A DNA stretch of 62,351 bases from Actinomycetes bacterium (GTDB taxonomy: Bacteria > Actinomycetota > Acidimicrobiia > Acidimicrobiales > Bog-793). The DNA lies in contig JAJZLV010000047.1 in the NCBI GenBank assembly GCA_021803215.1, positions 300 to 62,650 of the forward strand, read 5' to 3'. Within the stretch, counting starts at the first letter, position 1. Each line of letters opens with the position of its first letter. Position numbers and translations under genes: made by a program. The notes below the pieces were generated by a model. It was not told where the DNA came from, made no database searches, and was given only the letters and a program-made list of their open reading frames with translations. Below are positions 14,151-21,001 of this stretch, piece after piece.

Positions 14151-15404
14151 GTCCTCCCACCAGCCCGGATAGGTTTTGGTCACGCAGTCGGCCCCGGCTA
14201 TCACGAGGCCCTCGACAGCCGTCCCGAGGGCGCTGAAGGCCATCGCCATACGGTGATCCCCGTAGCTCTCAACCACCCCGCCGGCCAGGGGGCGCCCACC
14301 GCGCACGACGAGCAGGTCGCCTTCGATCTCAACCTCGCCACCGAGGCGGGCGAGCTCGTCGGCGACGGCCCGCGGCCGGTCGCTCTCGTGCCCCCGACTC
14401 ACCGACAGGCCGCTGAAGCGGCTCTCACCGGGCGCCAGGGCCGCCAGGACCGCCAGGGTAGGAAGCTGGTCCGGCATCGGCGCCAGGTCGACCTCGACCG
14501 GCCGGAGGCCACCAGGAGGTGCCGCCACTGTGACGCCGCCGGCCTCCCCTCTTCGCACGAGGGCTCCCATGGAGCCGAGGACATCGACCACCGCAGCGTC
14601 GGGCTGCAGGGTTCCGCCGGCGTTCGTCACGGTCAACTCGCCCCCGCTCGCCACGGCAGCCGCGAAGAGGTGGGCGGCCGCGCTGGCGTCGTAGCCGGCC
14701 TCGTAGGAGCCGCTCCGGTAGCCCGAGCCAGACGGCACGAGAAAGCTCGTCTGGCCGGTTCGCTCGACTCGCGCTCCGAGCTCTCCCATGAGCGCCACGG
14801 TGAGCTCGACGTACCCGCCGGCGCCCAGGCGCTCCACGACAAGCTCGACGTCGCTCTTGGCGTACGGCGCCACGAGGAGAAGGGCCGTGGCGAACTGCGA
14901 GCTCTTGGCGGCGTCGACCACGATCCGACCGCCCTCGAGGCCGGACGAGCTGATCGTGAAGGGCGCAAGGCCGCTGTTGCTCTCGACCCGGGCACCGCAT
15001 CGCTCCAGCGCCTCGAAAAGAGCACCGATCGGCCGGCGACGGAGCCCAGGCGCTCCATCGAGCACCACGGGGCGGTCGGCCAGGAGCGAGAGGGCGGCGA
15101 GAAACCTGAGGGTGGTGCCCGAGAGGGCGGCATCCACCACCTGGCCGGTGGGGTGGAGCTGTCCGCCGCTCCCTGCGACGGTCGCTCTCTCGGCCGCAAG
15201 GCTCACCTCGACTCCGAGAGCGCCGAGGCCGGCGGCCATGGCGTAGGTGTCGTCGCACAGGAGCGGGTGGCGGACCTCGCTCTCTCCCTCGGCCAGCGCA
15301 GTCATCGCAAGAAGGCGGTTGGTGATGCTCTTGCTCGAGGGAGCTCGCAGGCTGCCGTGGAGCGGCCCAGGATGGATGGCGAGGGTCTTGTCTGGGATCG
15401 GCAT
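14115..15404 (-). CDS. aroA: 3-phosphoshikimate 1-carboxyvinyltransferase (EPSP synthase)
   Basis: LHGSLRAPSSKSITNRLLAMTALAEGES N-terminal motif, full length. Start moved to ATG 15404 (MPIPDKTLAIHPG), which abuts the upstream gene stop at 15406. Confidence 0.9.
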   Translation of the reverse strand: MPIPDKTLAIHPGPLHGSLRAPSSKSITNRLLAMTALAEGESEVRHPLLCDDTYAMAAGLGALGVEVSLAAERATVAGSGGQLHPTGQVVDAALSGTTLRFLAALSLLADRPVVLDGAPGLRRRPIGALFEALERCGARVESNSGLAPFTISSSGLEGGRIVVDAAKSSQFATALLLVAPYAKSDVELVVERLGAGGYVELTVALMGELGARVERTGQTSFLVPSGSGYRSGSYEAGYDASAAAHLFAAAVASGGELTVTNAGGTLQPDAAVVDVLGSMGALVRRGEAGGVTVAAPPGGLRPVEVDLAPMPDQLPTLAVLAALAPGESRFSGLSVSRGHESDRPRAVADELARLGGEVEIEGDLLVVRGGRPLAGGVVESYGDHRMAMAFSALGTAVEGLVIAGADCVTKTYPGWWEDLARLGARLEAL

Positions 15405-15405
15405 C

Positions 15406-16542
15406 TCACTCACCAGAGCGCCTCGTCCGGAGGCGATCCTCTTCGACGACTTTGCCACCTGGAGAGCGGTGCGCCGGCCGCTTCGGCATCTCGAGAGCCA
15501 GGGCGACGTGGCTCCGCTCGCCCGACCAGGGCGCGAGAGGGGCGACGACCTCGTCGGCCAAGCGGTAGGCGAGCGAGTCGTAGTCCACCCTCCAGCCCTT
15601 GAAATGCGGCCAGGCTTGCTCAGCCGTCCTCTCGAGGACGACGCCGACCTCTGAAATCAAGGCGACGGCCTGGGCGAACTCCTCGTAGCCCAACTGGATC
15701 TCCGAGTCTGGGAGCGGGTCCGGGTCGTACTCCCGCCCGAGCAGGCCGGCTATGCGCCTAAGAGCAGTAAAGCCCATCCGGAGGCAGAAACGGGCCTCCG
15801 TGGGAGCGCTCGAGGGCATGAGCGAGAGATGGAGGGCGGCGGCATCGAGGACGGCGAGCTGGGCGAGGAGGGATGAGTAGCCGATCGCGGGCGAGCCGAA
15901 CAAGAGCCGGATCGGATAGCTGACGTGGCTCTCCGCCAGGTCGGCCGACCACTTCTCCCAATCGCGGTAGAGATCGGGCAGGGCATCGAAGCTCGCAACC
16001 AGCTGGTGCCTGACGAACACCTCCGGGCCCAAGGCCGGAAGGCCGGCCCGGCTCTCCATCAAGGTCACGAGCGACTCCCGGCGGTTGAAGGCGTCGTAGA
16101 TCACGGGCAGGCAGCCGATCTGGAGCGCGATGGCGACGCCACCCGTTATGGCGGCCAGCACCTCGATGCCGGAGTTGCCCGGGCCGCTCCTGGCTGCGAT
16201 GCCGGCCGTGAAGAGCTGGCTCGAGGCCAGCCTGGCTGCTGATGCGAACGAGCCGGCCGAGGCCGTGAGGGCGACCCAGTAGCCGAGGAGGAAAAGGGCG
16301 AGGAAGCTCGCCAACTGGCCGAGGAGGGCCAACGGGGCGATGGTGGCGAGCACCGTGTCCTTCGCCCGGACCGAGCCGAAGAGGCTCGCCAGCCGGACGC
16401 CGGCGGAGCGCACCCCGCGGTTCACCATGAACGCCAGCCGCATTGCCCAGCAGGCTCGCCGGGGCACGACGAAGGTGGCTGTCATGCTGACGAAAGTCGA
16501 CACCACGACGACGAGGCCGGCCACCAGTTCGAACGCGTGCAT
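15406..16542 (-). CDS. Hypothetical integral membrane protein with soluble C-terminal domain
   Basis: Four to five hydrophobic helices in the first ~170 aa, then a ~200-aa hydrophilic domain. No family recognised. Start taken at ATG 16542 (MHAFELVAG). Confidence 0.65.
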   Translation of the reverse strand: MHAFELVAGLVVVVSTFVSMTATFVVPRRACWAMRLAFMVNRGVRSAGVRLASLFGSVRAKDTVLATIAPLALLGQLASFLALFLLGYWVALTASAGSFASAARLASSQLFTAGIAARSGPGNSGIEVLAAITGGVAIALQIGCLPVIYDAFNRRESLVTLMESRAGLPALGPEVFVRHQLVASFDALPDLYRDWEKWSADLAESHVSYPIRLLFGSPAIGYSSLLAQLAVLDAAALHLSLMPSSAPTEARFCLRMGFTALRRIAGLLGREYDPDPLPDSEIQLGYEEFAQAVALISEVGVVLERTAEQAWPHFKGWRVDYDSLAYRLADEVVAPLAPWSGERSHVALALEMPKRPAHRSPGGKVVEEDRLRTRRSGE

Positions 16543-16593
16543 GGTGCGCGCATCTTTGCAGGAATCGCCGGCCCACAAGAACGGCCTCGATCA

Positions 16594-16620
16594 GTTTTCT
16601 TATGTGGCCCGAGCGGGTAT
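16594..16620 (+). promoter_or_regulatory. SigB/SigF-type promoter (GTTT-N17-GGGTAT)
   Basis: GTTT at 16594-16597, 17-nt spacer, GGGTAT at 16615-16620. It lies ~45 nt upstream of the small ORF start at 16666. Confidence 0.6.
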
Positions 16621-16665
16621 TTGCGACAGACCTAGCTATTCCAGACTGCTGGAGGAGACGAATAG

Positions 16666-16821
16666 ATGGGTTTGATTCTCTTGGCTTTCCTGCTGGTGCT
16701 GCTCTTCGCGGGCCTCGGGTTCGCGATCCATTTTCTCTGGATCGTCGCAGTGATCGCGTTCTTGATCTGGGTCATCGGATTCTTCGTAAGGGGCGCGGAG
16801 CGACGCTGGTACCACTGGTGA
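16666..16821 (+). CDS. Small hydrophobic membrane protein (51 aa), absent from the ORF track
   Basis: My translation: MGLILLAFLLVLLFAGLGFAIHFLWIVAVIAFLIWVIGFFVRGAERRWYHW. SD GGAGGAG at 16651-16657. It resembles the conserved actinobacterial two-TM 'hydrophobic protein' family ending in RRWY.W (from memory). Confidence 0.75.
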   Translation: MGLILLAFLLVLLFAGLGFAIHFLWIVAVIAFLIWVIGFFVRGAERRWYHW

Positions 16822-16849
16822 CGATGCATTGAGAAAGGGCCTCAGATTT

Positions 16850-16889
16850 GAGAAGGGGCCTCGCCGGCGGTCCGGTGGGGCCCCTTCTC
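16850..16889. terminator. Hairpin between convergent genes (11-bp perfect stem)
   Basis: gagaaggggcc (16850-16860) pairs with ggccccttctc (16879-16889). A second copy of the left arm, gagaaagggcc, is at 16831. No clear U-tract on either strand. Confidence 0.4.
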
Positions 16890-16999
16890 CTCGTCGGCGC
16901 CCTGGCATCAAGCTCTCGCCCGGCGAGTACCGGACACCGCCTGTCAGGACAACGGGCCACTCGCTGGGGGGCCACTCGGCGGCCAGCTAGGACGGACGC

Positions 17000-17206
17000 T
17001 CAGGCGATCTCGCCCTCGCCCTTCACCTCGGCACCGGTCTCGACAGCCTTCTTGTAGTTGGCGGCCACCTCCTGGGCAAGCTGCTCGCCGTCTGCCGCGG
17101 CCTCCTCCTCGGCGGTCGGCGGCCGGTCGGCCCGGTGCGAGGCCTTCGCCTCCTCCTCCTCGGCTCTCTCGGTCTCCAGGTCTGGTCTCGTGTGGTCTCT
17201 CGCCAT
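17000..17206 (-). CDS. Small acidic hypothetical protein (68 aa)
   Basis: MARDHTRPDLETERAEEEEAKASH...YKKAVETGAEVKGEGEIA. Start moved to ATG 17206 because a GGGTAT -10-like element (17243..17238) lies inside the longer track ORF. Confidence 0.55.
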   Translation of the reverse strand: MARDHTRPDLETERAEEEEAKASHRADRPPTAEEEAAADGEQLAQEVAANYKKAVETGAEVKGEGEIA

Positions 17207-17391
17207 GGGTGCTCTTGTAGCTTTCGGTCTTTCGGCGATACCCACCGCATCCGATCAGCTACCGGGGAGCAGCGCTTGGCTCGCTCGGCGCTACCGTCGT
17301 GTGATCTCCGCGAGGATCGGTGGGGCACCTATGGGGATGACGGCAGCCCGAACGGCGGTCTGCCGCAACGAGAGCTAATCGGAGGGCACCC

Positions 17392-17730
17392 ATGGAAGAA
17401 GAGTTCGAGGTAGCCGAGCACGACGGCGACATCCCGGTCCTCGCCGTCAGGGGTGAGATAGACGTCTCGACCGCGCCCGAGCTCCGCGACCGGCTCGTCC
17501 AGATCAACCAGCGAGGCACCACGACGGTCGTGGTCGACCTGAGCGAGGTGAGCTTCCTCGACTCGACCGCCCTCGGGGTCCTCGTGAGCGGCCTCAAGCG
17601 TTTCCGCTCCGCCGGGGGTGACCTGAGGCTCGTTGTCACCGGCCGGAGCGTCTCCAAGGTGCTCGAGATAACCGGGCTGCACGAGGTCTTCAAGATCTAC
17701 GAGACGGCCGAAGCGGCGGTGAGCGCATGA
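17392..17730 (+). CDS. STAS-domain anti-sigma-factor antagonist (RsbV/SpoIIAA-like)
   Basis: LAVRGEIDVSTAPELRDRL...VVVDLSEVSFLDSTALGVLV with the phosphorylatable Ser context. SD GGAGGG upstream. Confidence 0.9.
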   Translation: MEEEFEVAEHDGDIPVLAVRGEIDVSTAPELRDRLVQINQRGTTTVVVDLSEVSFLDSTALGVLVSGLKRFRSAGGDLRLVVTGRSVSKVLEITGLHEVFKIYETAEAAVSA

Positions 17731-18155
17731 GCCGAGACCTGCACGCAGACCGCGTCGAGCTCTCCATACCCGCCACGGTCGAGTGGCTCCTGCTGGCCCG
17801 CACCACCGGGGCCGCCATCGCCTCGCGCTGGTCGTTCACCTACGACGAGATCGCCGATCTGAAGCTCGCCATCGACGAGTTCTGCCTCACTCTCGTCGAG
17901 GGGCCGGGCGCCGAGCGACTCGATCTCGCCTATTACCTCGAGAACGACTCTCTCTGCCTCGAGGGACGGACCGTCCTCGCCACCCCGGGCAGCCAGGCGG
18001 CGAGTGACTCGGGAGCCACCGGCGCCGTGACCTTCTCGGCCGACCTCTCGGCTCGCATCCTCGACGCCCTCGTCGACGAGCACGGCATCAGCGACGGCCC
18101 CGGAGACGGCGCCAAGACGGCCTGGCTGCGCAAGAAGAGGAACCCCCTCTCCTAG
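17727..18155 (+). CDS. Anti-sigma factor (RsbW/UsfX-like)
   Basis: 142 aa, 4-nt overlap with the STAS gene and 1-nt overlap with the sigma gene. Its position and size match mycobacterial RsbW. Sequence similarity judged by eye only. Confidence 0.7.
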   Translation: MSRDLHADRVELSIPATVEWLLLARTTGAAIASRWSFTYDEIADLKLAIDEFCLTLVEGPGAERLDLAYYLENDSLCLEGRTVLATPGSQAASDSGATGAVTFSADLSARILDALVDEHGISDGPGDGAKTAWLRKKRNPLS

Positions 18156-18907
18156 TGAGCGGACCAGACGATGCCGCCTGCAGCACCGAGCTGCGCGCTA
18201 AGTTCCAGGCCTTCGCCGGTGGCGACCGGGAGCTGCGCGACGAGCTCATCGAGGCCCACCTCTGGCTGGCCGACCGCTTGGCGCGCCACTTCTCGAACCG
18301 GGGAGAGCCGCTCGACGACCTCTACCAGGTGAGCTCGCTCGCCCTCATAAAGGCGGTCGACCGCTTCGACCCCGACCGAGGAGTCGAGTTCACGAGCTAC
18401 GCCACCACGACGATCATCGGGGAGCTGAAGCGCCACTTCCGGGATCGGGGCTGGTCCGTCAGGGCCCCCCGGCGGATCCAGGAGCTCTACCTCCACCTCG
18501 GTCAGGCCATTGGGGAGCTCTCCCAGAGCCTCGGCCGCTCCCCCACAATCCAAGAGCTCGCCCAGGTGACCTCGGCCTCCGAGGAAGACGTCCTCGAGGC
18601 GCTCGAAGCCGGCCAGGCCTATAGGGCCACCTCGCTCGACGCCCCGTCCGAGGACGACGACACCCTCGGCAGCCACCTCGGGGGGGAGGACAGCGAGTTC
18701 GCCAACTCCGAGAGACGCCTGCTGCTCGAGCCCTACCTGAGCCGCCTGCCGGAGAGGGAGCGCCTCATATTGAAGCTCCGCTTCGAAGAAGACCTCACCC
18801 AGTCCGAGATCGCCGAGCAACTCGGGATCTCCCAGATGCACGTCTCGCGGCTCCTCTCCAAGTGCCTCGCCCGTCTCCACGAGGCCTACCAGGGAGCCGA
18901 GACCTGA
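18155..18907 (+). CDS. sigF: Group-3 alternative sigma factor (SigB/SigF family)
   Basis: Region 2: DDLYQVSSLALIKAVDRFDPDRGVEFTSYATTTIIGELKRHFRD. Region 4: LTQSEIAEQLGISQMHVSRLL. Operon order is antagonist, anti-sigma, sigma. Confidence 0.88.
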   Translation: MSGPDDAACSTELRAKFQAFAGGDRELRDELIEAHLWLADRLARHFSNRGEPLDDLYQVSSLALIKAVDRFDPDRGVEFTSYATTTIIGELKRHFRDRGWSVRAPRRIQELYLHLGQAIGELSQSLGRSPTIQELAQVTSASEEDVLEALEAGQAYRATSLDAPSEDDDTLGSHLGGEDSEFANSERRLLLEPYLSRLPERERLILKLRFEEDLTQSEIAEQLGISQMHVSRLLSKCLARLHEAYQGAET

Positions 18908-18975
18908 GCTCTCTCGCCGCGATCTGCCTGGTGGGAGCGGTGGTGAAAGACGCCAGGAAATTCTCCGACAAATCC

Positions 18976-19000
18976 GTTTGCAGCTCTTTGGCCCGGGTAT
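18976..19000 (+). promoter_or_regulatory. SigB/SigF-type promoter (GTTT-N15-GGGTAT) downstream of sigF
   Basis: GTTT at 18976-18979, 15-nt spacer, GGGTAT at 18995-19000. It starts 69 nt after the sigF stop. Confidence 0.6.
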
Positions 19001-19006
19001 ATCGAA

Positions 19007-19241
19007 GAGCACAGCGCTACGGCGCTTTGACAACTGAGATCGAGTCGGTCGGGCCGCTGGAGACCAACCAGGGGTCGTATCGACTTAAGACGCGCAGGGC
19101 GGTGATCATGTTGCTCGTGTCGCCAAGCGACCCGAGACGCCAGCCCCCCAACTGACATGGGAGCTGCCCGCGCAGGCTGCTGAGCGAACCCCGCCCGCTC
19201 GCAGCAAATACAGGGCCCGCCAAGGCGGGCCCTGTTTTTTT
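19007..19241 (+). ncRNA. Candidate ~230-nt small RNA (or attenuating leader) bounded by the SigF-type promoter and an intrinsic terminator
   Basis: No credible ORF; the longest with ATG is 15 codons. Contains a C6 run (19144-19149), a 10-bp hairpin at 19176-19205 with C-rich loop AACCCCGCC, and then the terminator. Confidence 0.4.
19211..19241 (+). terminator. Rho-independent terminator
   Basis: cagggcccgcc-aa-ggcgggccctg gives a perfect GC-rich stem, followed by TTTTTTT (19235-19241). Confidence 0.85.
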
Positions 19242-19375
19242 CTCCCGCTCGATAACCGCGAGATCGCCGGGCGGGCCCGGTAGGTTGAGGGTCCAGCGCA
19301 GGCATGCAAGGCCCGCCCGGCGAGGCGCCAGGCGGCCCCGAACTCGACCACGGGCTTCAGGGGGGACTGACACAG

Positions 19376-21001
19376 ATGAGCGCAACCACCGGGCAGATGA
19401 CGAGCCGGCCCCGCCTCAGCCTCGCCACGCTCTCGCTCGTCCTCTTCCTCACCTTCTTGGACAACACGATCGTCAGCGTCACGCTCTCTGACATCCAAAG
19501 CGACCTGCACGTCGGCGTGACCGGTCTGCAGTGGGTGGTGAGCGCTTACGCTCTCGTCTTCGCGAGCCTCATGCTGGCGGCCGGCACGGTCTCCGACCTC
19601 GTCGGGCGAAAGAAGGTCATGCTGGCCGGTGTCGCCATCTTCTGCGTCGGCTCGGTCATCGGAGCCCTCGCCCCGAACGTCACCGTCCTGTGGGCCGCCC
19701 GCGGCATCATGGGGCTCGGCGCGGCGGCCTCGGAGCCCGGCACCCTCTCGATGATCCGGCACCTTTACACCGATCGCCGCGAGCGGGCTCGGGCGCTCGG
19801 AGTCTGGGCGGCCGTCTCCGGCCTCGCCTTGGCAGCCGGGCCCGTCATCGGTGGCGCCCTCATCGGAGTCTGGAGCTGGCGGGCCGTCTTCTGGTTCAAC
19901 CTCTTCTTCGGGCTGCTCGCCCTCATCGGTGGTGCCATCGTGCTGCCCGAGAACTCGGACCCCCAGGCCGGCCGGCGCTTCGACTTCGGCGGCTTCTTCC
20001 TCGGAGCCGCCGCCCTCGCCTCGACCACCTTCGCCATCATCGCCGGTGAGACCTCCGGCTATCGCACCTGGTGGGTGATCGCTCTCTTCATCATCGGCGG
20101 AGCCACCTTCTTGGCCTTCATCTTCTTCGAACAAAGAGCCGACAATCCGATCCTCGACGTCTCGTTCTTCCGCAAACCCGCCTTCTCCGGCGCCGTCTTC
20201 ACCGCCTTCGCCACCTACTTCGGCGTCTTCTCGATCTTTTTCTTCGTCTCTTTGTACCTCGAGGTGGTCGGCTCGGAGAGCGGCTACAAGGTGGCGCTCG
20301 ACTTCTTGCCGATGGCGGCGACGATGATCATCGGGAGCGCCTTCACCGGCCGTTGGGTGGCGGAGATGGGACCGCGCGTGCCGCTCGTCTTCGGCTGCGC
20401 CGCCGGGACGGCCGGCATCGCCCTCACGGCTGTCCTGCTCACGCCGACGAGCGGGGTCACCTCGATCGGCTGGCCGCTCGCCATCGCGGGCCTCGGCTTC
20501 GGCGTGGCCGTCGTCCCGATCACCTCGACGGCGCTGGCGGCCATCCCGGCCGAGCACTCGGGCATGGCGGCCTCGACAACCAACACGAGCCGAGAGCTCG
20601 GCGCCGTGGCGGGCGTCGCCATCCTGGGCTCGGTCGTGAACGCTCAGCTGACGGTCCAGCTGGCGGCCCGGCTCCAGCACCTCTGCCTCGTCGCGCAAAA
20701 GGGCCACTGCGTCCTTCCGGCAATCAGATTCAAGTCCCTCATCATCACCGCTGTGACGACCGGGACGATCACCGGCCAGGTGAAGCAGTACGAGAAGAAC
20801 AAGACCCTCGCCGTCGTCGTGGCGAAGGTGACCAGGGCTGCCTACGGAGCCTTCACGAGCGGCCTCCACCTCTCGCTCGGCATCGCCGGCGCCCTCATGT
20901 TCCTCTCGATGCTGATCTCCGGCCTCACGGTGCACGGCCGGCGCAGCCCGGCCACCGGACCTCTCGACGAGGAGGTCTCTCCGGTCGGGCTCACCAGCTG
21001 A
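19376..21001 (+). CDS. MFS transporter, DHA2 (EmrB/QacA, 14-TMS) family
   Basis: LSLVLFLTFLDNTIVSVTLSDIQSDL...WVVSAYALVFASLMLAAGTVSDLVGRKK motifs. Start moved to ATG 19376, preceded by AGGGGGGA. Confidence 0.88.
   Translation: MSATTGQMTSRPRLSLATLSLVLFLTFLDNTIVSVTLSDIQSDLHVGVTGLQWVVSAYALVFASLMLAAGTVSDLVGRKKVMLAGVAIFCVGSVIGALAPNVTVLWAARGIMGLGAAASEPGTLSMIRHLYTDRRERARALGVWAAVSGLALAAGPVIGGALIGVWSWRAVFWFNLFFGLLALIGGAIVLPENSDPQAGRRFDFGGFFLGAAALASTTFAIIAGETSGYRTWWVIALFIIGGATFLAFIFFEQRADNPILDVSFFRKPAFSGAVFTAFATYFGVFSIFFFVSLYLEVVGSESGYKVALDFLPMAATMIIGSAFTGRWVAEMGPRVPLVFGCAAGTAGIALTAVLLTPTSGVTSIGWPLAIAGLGFGVAVVPITSTALAAIPAEHSGMAASTTNTSRELGAVAGVAILGSVVNAQLTVQLAARLQHLCLVAQKGHCVLPAIRFKSLIITAVTTGTITGQVKQYEKNKTLAVVVAKVTRAAYGAFTSGLHLSLGIAGALMFLSMLISGLTVHGRRSPATGPLDEEVSPVGLTS

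Follow-up and report, generated by a model that had tools for sequence, protein, structure and literature searches.

A predicted structured small RNA gene with a SigB/SigF-type promoter and conserved C-rich motifs in uncultured Acidimicrobiales

Two actinobacterial small RNAs (sRNAs) and one staphylococcal sRNA are the closest described systems to the locus analyzed here. The C-rich loops of 6C (RF01066; B11 in Mycobacterium tuberculosis) are proven seeds for G-rich ribosome-binding sites and act without a chaperone (PMC6486639). SfdS/F6 (ncRv10243) of M. tuberculosis is a SigF-dependent sRNA with the strongest SigF promoter of the genome (PMC8557902), its dependence having been established by northern blot in a sigF mutant (PMC8557902). 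In Staphylococcus aureus, a C-rich motif of the sigma-B-dependent sRNA RsaA is a proven seed against the mgrA Shine-Dalgarno sequence (PMC3961350). The promoters in question follow the consensus GTTTAA-N12-14-GGG(A/T)A(A/T) for Bacillus subtilis SigB (PMC8346170) and NGNTTG-N14-18-GGGTAT for mycobacterial SigF (bioRxiv 10.1101/2020.01.15.907535). Here, we analyzed a stretch of 62,351 nucleotides (the window) on contig JAJZLV010000047.1 of a high-G+C actinobacterium of the order Acidimicrobiales, in which an earlier note had pointed out an orphan SigF-type promoter and a terminator between a sigF-like gene and a gene for an MFS efflux pump. We consider it likely that positions 18976-19241 constitute an independent structured non-coding sRNA gene of ~233 nt, with a SigB/SigF-type promoter, an intrinsic terminator, and C-rich seeds acting in trans.

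Direct reading of the sequence located an exact GTTT-N15-GGGTAT element that starts 69 nt past the last base of the sigF stop codon (18905-18907). The element matches both the B. subtilis SigB and the mycobacterial SigF consensus, reading CGTTTG-N14-GGGTAT at 18974-19000. The looser motif GTTT-N14-17-GGGTA has two matches in the window where 0.15 would be expected, a count reached by 1 of 100 shuffles. With its 5' end placed 7-9 nt past the -10 element, the predicted transcript would span ~233 nt, and the segment 19008-19243 (236 nt) folds with an energy of -120 kcal/mol (z = -5.4 versus shuffles). Its terminator, which the earlier note had called the best of the window, is the sole perfect-stem hairpin with at least five T behind it that a hairpin scan found across the 62 kb. 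The downstream DHA2-type MFS efflux gene starts at 19376 according to public gene calls. All positions given in the earlier note proved correct, including this gene start, the spacing of the promoter from sigF, a C6 run at 19144-19149, and a 10-bp hairpin with a 9-nt loop at 19176-19205. One of its elements has to be redrawn: the supposed small hairpin with a C-rich loop at 19164-19175 forms, in the conserved structure, one side of a long helix, as the 3' strand opposite 19092-19103. The features of the unit are collected in Table 1.

Table 1. Coordinates of the sigma factor gene and of the elements of the predicted sRNA unit in the window
Feature	Position	Strand	Description
SigB/SigF/SigG-family sigma factor gene (sigF-like)	18155..18907	+	NCBIfam TIGR02980, 268.7 bits vs cut-off 234.35
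SigB/SigF-type promoter	18976..19000	+	-35 GTTT 18976-18979, 15-nt spacer, -10 GGGTAT 18995-19000 (direct reading)
Predicted sRNA transcript, ~233 nt	19008..19241	+	Based on fold z, homologues (nhmmer and covariance model), and lack of a conserved open reading frame
P1, 5'-proximal hairpin	19013..19026	+	AGCGC-UACG-GCGCU; same place, with differing stem sequences, in the five full-length lineages
Conserved UUUGACAA directly 3' of P1	19026..19033	+	CUUGACAA in L167; alignments A3 and A7 and regex scan
P2, variable-length domain	19043..19085	+	Basal helix conserved; apical insertions in L170 and L178
P3, long helix	19092..19173	+	Encloses hairpin 19119-19131 (GUCGC-CAA-GCGAC) and the unpaired C6 region
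15-codon ATG reading frame (MLLVSPSDPRRQPPN)	19108..19155	+	Judged not a gene
13-mer GCCAGCCCCCCAA, candidate seed 1	19139..19151	+	Unpaired in consensus fold; identical in all seven lineages including L002
P4 hairpin, candidate seed 2 in loop	19176..19205	+	10-bp stem with one bulge: GCUGC-U-GAGCG / loop AACCCCGCC (19187-19195) / CGCUCGCAGC
Intrinsic terminator	19210..19241	+	Stem-loop 19210-19235 (11 pairs, 9 G-C, loop of 4), then U7

Homologues of the unit came to light only on contigs identified by exact-match look-ups of proteins closely related to SigF and MFS. The spacer DNA itself gave no match when blastn and nhmmer were run on 160 loci around sigF taken from JGI metagenomes and species-representative genomes, and in the nearest species representatives the gene after sigF differs. 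The unit is present in six other Acidimicrobiales lineages, namely L167, L170, L177, L178, L184, and, as a divergent copy, L002; the window, L167, L170, L178, and L184 are the five full-length lineages. L167 (SigF 94 %) keeps the order sigF, sRNA, MFS, and in L170-L172 (SigF 89 %) the sRNA lies ~400 nt past sigF and is followed by MFS. The contig of L177 (MFS 80 %) is cut inside the sRNA, with MFS downstream. In L184 (MFS 78 %), the sRNA stands between a haem-oxygenase-like gene and MFS, and there is no sigF in the 2.3 kb of contig upstream of it. In L178 (MFS 74 %), a methyltransferase gene precedes the sRNA, two opposite-strand genes (DJ-1/PfpI and APH) follow it, MFS is 1.8 kb away, and no sigF was found within the 2-3 kb of contig upstream. 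L002 (SigF 86 %) carries sigF, an acyl-CoA-dehydrogenase-like gene, the divergent sRNA 1.1 kb from sigF, and PIG-L. When ~170 other loci were scanned with a covariance model built on the 3' domain (R1), no additional copy turned up, and among the loci searched the predicted family is confined to a small clade of uncultured Acidimicrobiales.

Six samples (L161-L166) yielded loci identical to the window and of the same species. L168, with 2 single-nucleotide polymorphisms in the spacer, was left out as an independent lineage because it is the window's own species. The first 250 nt of its contig are divergent: between L168 positions 1-300 and window positions 18073-18372, which cover the 5' part of sigF, 85 mismatches are packed together, the sequences being otherwise identical. 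Either strain recombination or a chimeric assembly could account for this divergent start.

Both promoter elements and their 15-nt spacing are retained exactly in all five full-length lineages, with a spacer sequence that varies; L002 has GTTT-N16-GGGTAG. DNA identity to the window in the RNA 3' domain is 84 % for L167, 72 % for L170, and 74 % for L178. The corresponding values are 87 % and 78 % for sigF (L167 and L170) and 83 %, 71 %, and 72 % for MFS (L167, L170, and L178). The spacers are far less conserved, with 64 % (L167) and 44 % (L170) between terminator and MFS and 37 % (L167) in the 68 nt between the sigF stop codon and the promoter. The RNA 3' domain thus matches the flanking coding DNA in conservation and far exceeds the flanking spacers, which indicates that the RNA is under selection. 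The terminator is kept in every copy, that of L178 bearing a single compensatory replacement of C-G by U-A; the U-tract behind it is weaker or interrupted in L170, L178, and L184 and weaker also in L002.

The consensus fold predicted by RNAalifold comprises 53-55 pairs, 10-12 of them with compensatory changes, arranged in four domains. Directly 3' of P1, an element reading (U)UUGACAA runs through the lineages; its TTGACA was also considered as an internal promoter and rejected, as no -10 element lies 16-19 nt behind it in any lineage. The basal helix of P2 (helix 1 of alignment A3) has 10 pairs, four with compensatory changes. P3 (helices 1-3 of alignment A5) has eight such pairs, and its outer helix is kept even in the divergent L002. 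The P4 loop is near-invariant, A(A/C)CCCCGCC being kept in six of seven lineages, and pair 5 of the P4 stem covaries from C-G to U-A; P4 is absent or reduced in L002. Many of the replacements are G-U pairs compatible with the plus strand only. The most conserved unpaired parts of the predicted sRNA are its C-rich motifs.

We compared these changes with randomized controls. Alignment A5 has double changes in 10 pairs, a number that none of 500 column shuffles attained (4.0 ± 1.5) and that compares with 0-3 in slid-partner controls, with 92.9 % of cells paired against 31-45 % when the partners are slid, and alignment A3 has 12 double-change pairs against 6.0 in shuffles (0 of 500); the consensus structure was derived from the same alignments, and we read the numbers as supportive, not conclusive. 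The earlier note had proposed an alignment with relatives and had named a lack of conservation of promoter and hairpins as grounds for abandoning its claim. Promoter, terminator, and hairpins are all conserved, and the hairpins covary. Together, conservation and covariation in six other lineages support its proposal that the unit is a non-coding RNA gene in its own right, equipped with a SigB/SigF-type promoter, C-rich motifs that stay unpaired, and a terminator.

Coding capacity was assessed next to structure. Between promoter and terminator, no plus-strand open reading frame (ORF) of at least 20 amino acids starts inside the unit, in agreement with the earlier note, which had seen no credible one. 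The 15-codon ORF keeps its frame in L167 and L177, where the nucleotides themselves are conserved, and in L170 and L178 a stop codon interrupts the frame and an ATG, GTG, or TTG start is missing. Alignment gaps are mostly not multiples of three. The lack of a long ORF, the broken 15-codon ORF, and the non-triplet insertions and deletions indicate that the unit is non-coding. The earlier note's other suggestion, an attenuator with a 15-codon leader peptide, finds no support in these frames.

The genes on either side of the unit vary. Upstream stands sigF in the window, L167, and, at ~400 nt, L170, a haem-oxygenase-like gene in L184, a methyltransferase gene in L178, and an acyl-CoA-dehydrogenase-like gene in L002; downstream stands MFS in five lineages, PIG-L in L002, and a convergent DJ-1/PfpI gene in L178. 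This variation, together with the convergent orientation in L178, argues for an independent sRNA gene that is neither a sigF 3' untranslated region nor an obligate MFS leader. At the level of sequence, the analysis thus establishes in silico the unit, its conservation, its structure, its non-coding nature, and its independence from its neighbors.

These observations are compatible with the following mechanism. The sigma factor encoded upstream would presumably transcribe the sRNA from GTTT-N15-GGGTAT, and the sRNA would accumulate when the partner-switching module releases the sigma factor under stress, transcription ending at the strong intrinsic terminator. The sRNA would then act in trans as a base-pairing regulator whose C-rich elements pair with G-rich Shine-Dalgarno regions and lower translation. 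Two seeds are proposed, one being the invariant GCCAGCCCCCCAA, which lies in the internal loop within P3, and the other AACCCCGCC, which forms the loop of P4. We infer their seed function, and the kind of target they would have, by analogy with the described C-rich sRNAs.

Several points weigh against this reading. The transcription of the sRNA, its 5' start, its length, and its SigF dependence are predictions made from the DNA alone. The close relatives L001, L081, L082, L169, and L173-176 have no sRNA within 3-4 kb of sigF. With about six independent and fairly close lineages, the power to detect covariation is low, and shared ancestry inflates the shuffle test. When the two C-rich segments were compared by RNAduplex with 338 candidate start regions of the window, in a G+C-rich genome, no outlier emerged; the MFS start region gave -19.7 kcal/mol against a mean of -15.9 (standard deviation 4.5). 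A length of 233 nt with four domains exceeds the typical size of a seed-type sRNA, making a protein-binding role possible. Finally, five of the seven lineages have the same MFS gene directly downstream of the sRNA and on its strand, and several copies have a weak U-tract, so that read-through into the pump is possible.

This last point leads to the alternative that survives best, although we regard it as unlikely: the unit would be a cis-acting 5' leader of the DHA2-type MFS gene, with the SigF-type promoter driving the pump and a structured leader and terminator gating read-through in the manner of a riboswitch or of an attenuator, either protein-dependent or based on a leader peptide. The sRNA lies 120-180 nt upstream of orthologous same-strand MFS genes in the window, L167, L177, L170, and L184 while the upstream neighbor changes, and the interrupted U-tract in L170, L178, and L184 would permit read-through. 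An attenuator should always stand upstream of, and co-oriented with, the gene it regulates; this arrangement is found in five lineages but not in L178 or L002. L178 retains an intact promoter, fold, and terminator in front of two opposite-strand genes with MFS 1.8 kb off, and L002 has PIG-L behind the unit and no MFS gene in the locus. Conversely, MFS orthologues in the more distant L179-L183 have no sRNA element. The leader peptide is not conserved, being broken in L170 and L178, and no riboswitch or leader model of Rfam matches the unit. The consensus folds show no conserved pairing alternative to the 11-12-bp G+C terminator stem, although no systematic search for one was made. A conserved GGTAGGTTG (TANNNT-like -10) lies between terminator and MFS start in four of five lineages, which suggests that the pump has a promoter of its own. 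An independent sRNA gene could still allow a degree of SigF-driven read-through into the pump as a by-product.

Two further observations concern the spacer in front of the pump gene, within 19262-19325 on the plus strand and especially at 19287-19299. The motif CGGTAGGTTGAGG is conserved in L167 and L177 and partly in L184, and may serve the pump gene as a TANNNT-type -10 element or as an operator. A 12-bp G+C hairpin (GCCGGGCGGGCC…GGCCCGCCCGGC) lies between terminator and MFS start and causes minus-strand matches of the RNA model. Such matches (e.g. 19202-19327, 43 bits) were considered as a second RNA, a candidate that was rejected because the palindromic terminator and the G+C hairpin explain them.

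A second alternative, which we hold to be very unlikely, is that the sRNA binds a protein rather than an mRNA, either as a 6S- or Ms1-like RNA directed at RNA polymerase or a sigma factor or as a sponge for an RNA-binding protein, with feedback on sigma competition in stress. Its length of ~233 nt and its four domains would fit such a role, as would the invariant single-stranded UUGACA(A) beside the 5' hairpin, which equals the -35 hexamer of housekeeping promoters, and the linkage to the sigma operon in three lineages. However, the unit matches neither 6S nor Ms1 nor any other Rfam family, the consensus fold lacks a 6S-like central bubble, and conservation among the unpaired elements is highest in C-rich ones, a trait of seed-type sRNAs. 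A specific version, to which we give only a slender chance, is a protein-binding riboregulator under SigB/SigF control whose partners would be RNA polymerase, the partner-switching proteins, or the housekeeping sigma factor, contacted through UUGACA, as a -35 look-alike, and through the multi-domain fold. If true, it would reinforce or limit the sigma switch, being a neighbor of the sigma operon and functionally analogous to 6S or Ms1 despite an unrelated architecture.

The least probable alternative holds that there is no separate gene and that the region is a long sigF 3' untranslated region with a chance promoter-like motif, as the first terminator after sigF (19210-19241) and a lone motif match in 62 kb (with two reached in 1 of 100 shuffles) might suggest, but the motif and its spacing are conserved exactly in four other lineages amid diverging surroundings, the 68 nt between the sigF stop codon and the motif are only 37 % identical to L167, and copies of the unit stand without an adjacent sigF in L178 and L184 and behind another gene, 1.1 kb from sigF, in L002, so that this explanation, which the earlier note had itself raised, fails.

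To place the promoter in a wider context, we surveyed the motif around SigF homologues of Acidimicrobiia, in 160 loci of which 80 came from species-representative genomes and 80 from metagenome contigs. The count of GTTT-N14-17-GGGTA in these loci is 123 against 2.7 ± 1.9 expected from first-order Markov simulations, a ~45-fold enrichment. Three sites recur: one on the opposite strand ~950 nt upstream of sigF, just upstream of the operon's first gene and pointing away; one in front of the three-gene sigma operon; and one 20-70 nt past the sigF stop codon in at least 12 loci. Behind this post-sigF promoter, 11 of the 12 loci have a Shine-Dalgarno sequence and then an ORF, which encodes a Cys-rich protein of ~80 amino acids in eight loci, an acidic protein of ~75 amino acids in two, and a different product in L065; the twelfth locus, L096, has a longer leader ahead of its ORF. 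The enrichment near sigF and the position ahead of genes with ribosome-binding sites indicate that this is a working promoter motif of the sigma family in the clade. A SigF-type promoter directly after sigF is therefore common in the class, and the window is unusual in having no protein gene behind it. The possibility that the unit is a decayed gene for one of the small proteins (80-amino-acid Cys-rich or 75-amino-acid acidic) was discarded, tblastn having found no trace of either in the region.

The operon preceding the sRNA in the window (17392-18907) encodes a STAS-domain anti-sigma antagonist, an RsbW-like anti-sigma factor, and, last, the sigma factor, with the RsbW and antagonist models also matching. 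The spacer preference of the promoter differs between the wider clade (16 nt) and the sRNA family (15 nt). The minus-strand form GTTTCC-N-CAC-N-GGGTA, ~950 nt upstream of sigF and mostly with a 16-nt spacer, was seen in dozens of loci, many of them Acidimicrobiaceae metagenome-assembled genomes, for example at ~3020-3075 in L022-L068 and at ~2020-2060 in L110-L158. A second motif of the window, GTTT-N17-GGGTAT at 16594-16619 (+), lies 47 nt upstream of a 51-amino-acid ORF at 16666-16821 (+). This ORF has a GGAGGAG ribosome-binding site and encodes a very hydrophobic product without an NCBIfam match; its DNA is conserved in L001, L081, and L082, and the upstream motif occurs also in L001 (2689) and L082 (1408).

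The small proteins encoded near sigF deserve a separate description. The Cys-rich protein of ~80 amino acids, which the promoter after sigF drives in many other Acidimicrobiia, has the motif RVCAxxGCxxxLSIYNSxxCCALHD and an Arg-rich tail, has no NCBIfam match, and is encoded on the plus strand after sigF in L006 (4777), L010 (4767), L012 (4740), L045 (4693), L060 (4693), L093 (3777), L134 (3698), and L159 (3452); this small protein is a candidate for an undescribed SigB/SigF regulon member in tight linkage with sigF. The acidic protein of ~70 amino acids (…DRPPTADEEAAAD…GEGxI) is a recurrent sigF neighbor driven by a SigF-type promoter (L085, 3740; L100, 2398). Its copy in the window lies at 17000-17206 (-), upstream of the sigma operon, with GGGTAT 33 nt before the ATG and a weak -35 (GGTA). 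Set against window positions 15400-19400, L179-L181 have a single PIG-L deacetylase gene joining the conserved flanks, with EPSP synthase and a minus-strand gene of 375-390 amino acids on one side and MFS-FdhD-TetR-AurF on the other. The same gap in the window holds the 51-amino-acid ORF, the acidic protein gene, the operon for the STAS antagonist, the RsbW-like factor, and sigF, and the sRNA. This difference suggests that the whole stress module is an insertion/deletion cassette.

If the sRNA reading holds, it adds a well-delimited sRNA family to the Acidimicrobiia, an abundant and mostly uncultured class of soil and peat; a literature search on Acidimicrobiia, small RNA, and sigma factor found no sRNA work. 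The practical value lies in annotation and in reading metatranscriptomes. The motif GTTT-N15/16-GGGTA, given its ~45-fold enrichment near sigF, is usable as a regulon motif to predict the general stress regulon of the clade from metagenome-assembled genomes. Such a finding is not surprising in principle and opens no long-standing question.

Finally, we compared the unit with described RNAs. Rfam 15 gave no match at the gathering threshold in the whole window, and at E <= 10 the region 18850-19450 returned only noise (16 matches), such as the terminator look-alikes STnc320 and sX11 and scr5239 at 17.7 bits versus a cut-off of 64; a scan of the homologous loci L167, L170, L178, and L002 at E <= 1 found no family. 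The 6C model, for which the earlier note had suggested a search, did not match even at E <= 10 in 18850-19450. By these comparisons, the predicted sRNA belongs to a previously undescribed family, absent from Rfam, and is a member of neither 6C nor F6.

The likeness to 6C that the earlier note had drawn holds in part. Both occur in high-G+C Gram-positive hosts, and in both an intrinsic terminator closely follows conserved C-rich stretches that are unpaired. It does not extend to the 6C model or to size, the unit being about three times longer, and the relation is one of analogy only. 6C consists of two C-loop stem-loops in ~60-100 nt, whereas the predicted RNA has ~233 nt and two extra 5' domains; only one of its C-rich elements is a hairpin loop (P4), and the C6 sits, unlike in 6C, in an internal loop of the 82-nt P3 helix. 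6C is distributed across the Actinobacteria, whereas the sRNA described here is narrow in its distribution.

With SfdS/F6, the unit shares an actinobacterial host, a canonical SigF-type promoter (GGGTAT -10), a free-standing intergenic position, and presumed induction by stress or starvation within the SigF regulon. F6 differs in length (102 nt, processed to 58 nt, versus ~233 nt) and in location, lying between fadA2 and fadE5 and not by sigF and/or MFS; the Rfam scan showed no sequence or structure homology, and the SigF dependence proposed here is a deduction from the promoter. With RsaA and other sigma-B-dependent C-rich (UCCC) sRNAs (PMC2790875, PMC3961350), the likeness would lie in a SigB/SigF-family promoter, an unpaired C-rich motif directed at Shine-Dalgarno sequences, Hfq independence, and an intrinsic terminator. 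RsaA comes from an unrelated phylum, has no homology to the unit, carries UCCC instead of C6 and CCCCGCC, and has known targets (e.g. mgrA). The unit has four features of the class of C-rich sRNAs under alternative sigma factors: a conserved promoter of its own, a free-standing position with a terminator, no conserved coding capacity, and a conserved unpaired C-rich motif. By analogy with 6C, SfdS, and RsaA, it may act through C-rich seeds on G-rich ribosome-binding sites under an alternative sigma factor. The predicted gene shows that the combination of a SigB/SigF-type promoter with a C-rich sRNA, known in Staphylococcus and Mycobacterium, recurs in a deep actinobacterial lineage.

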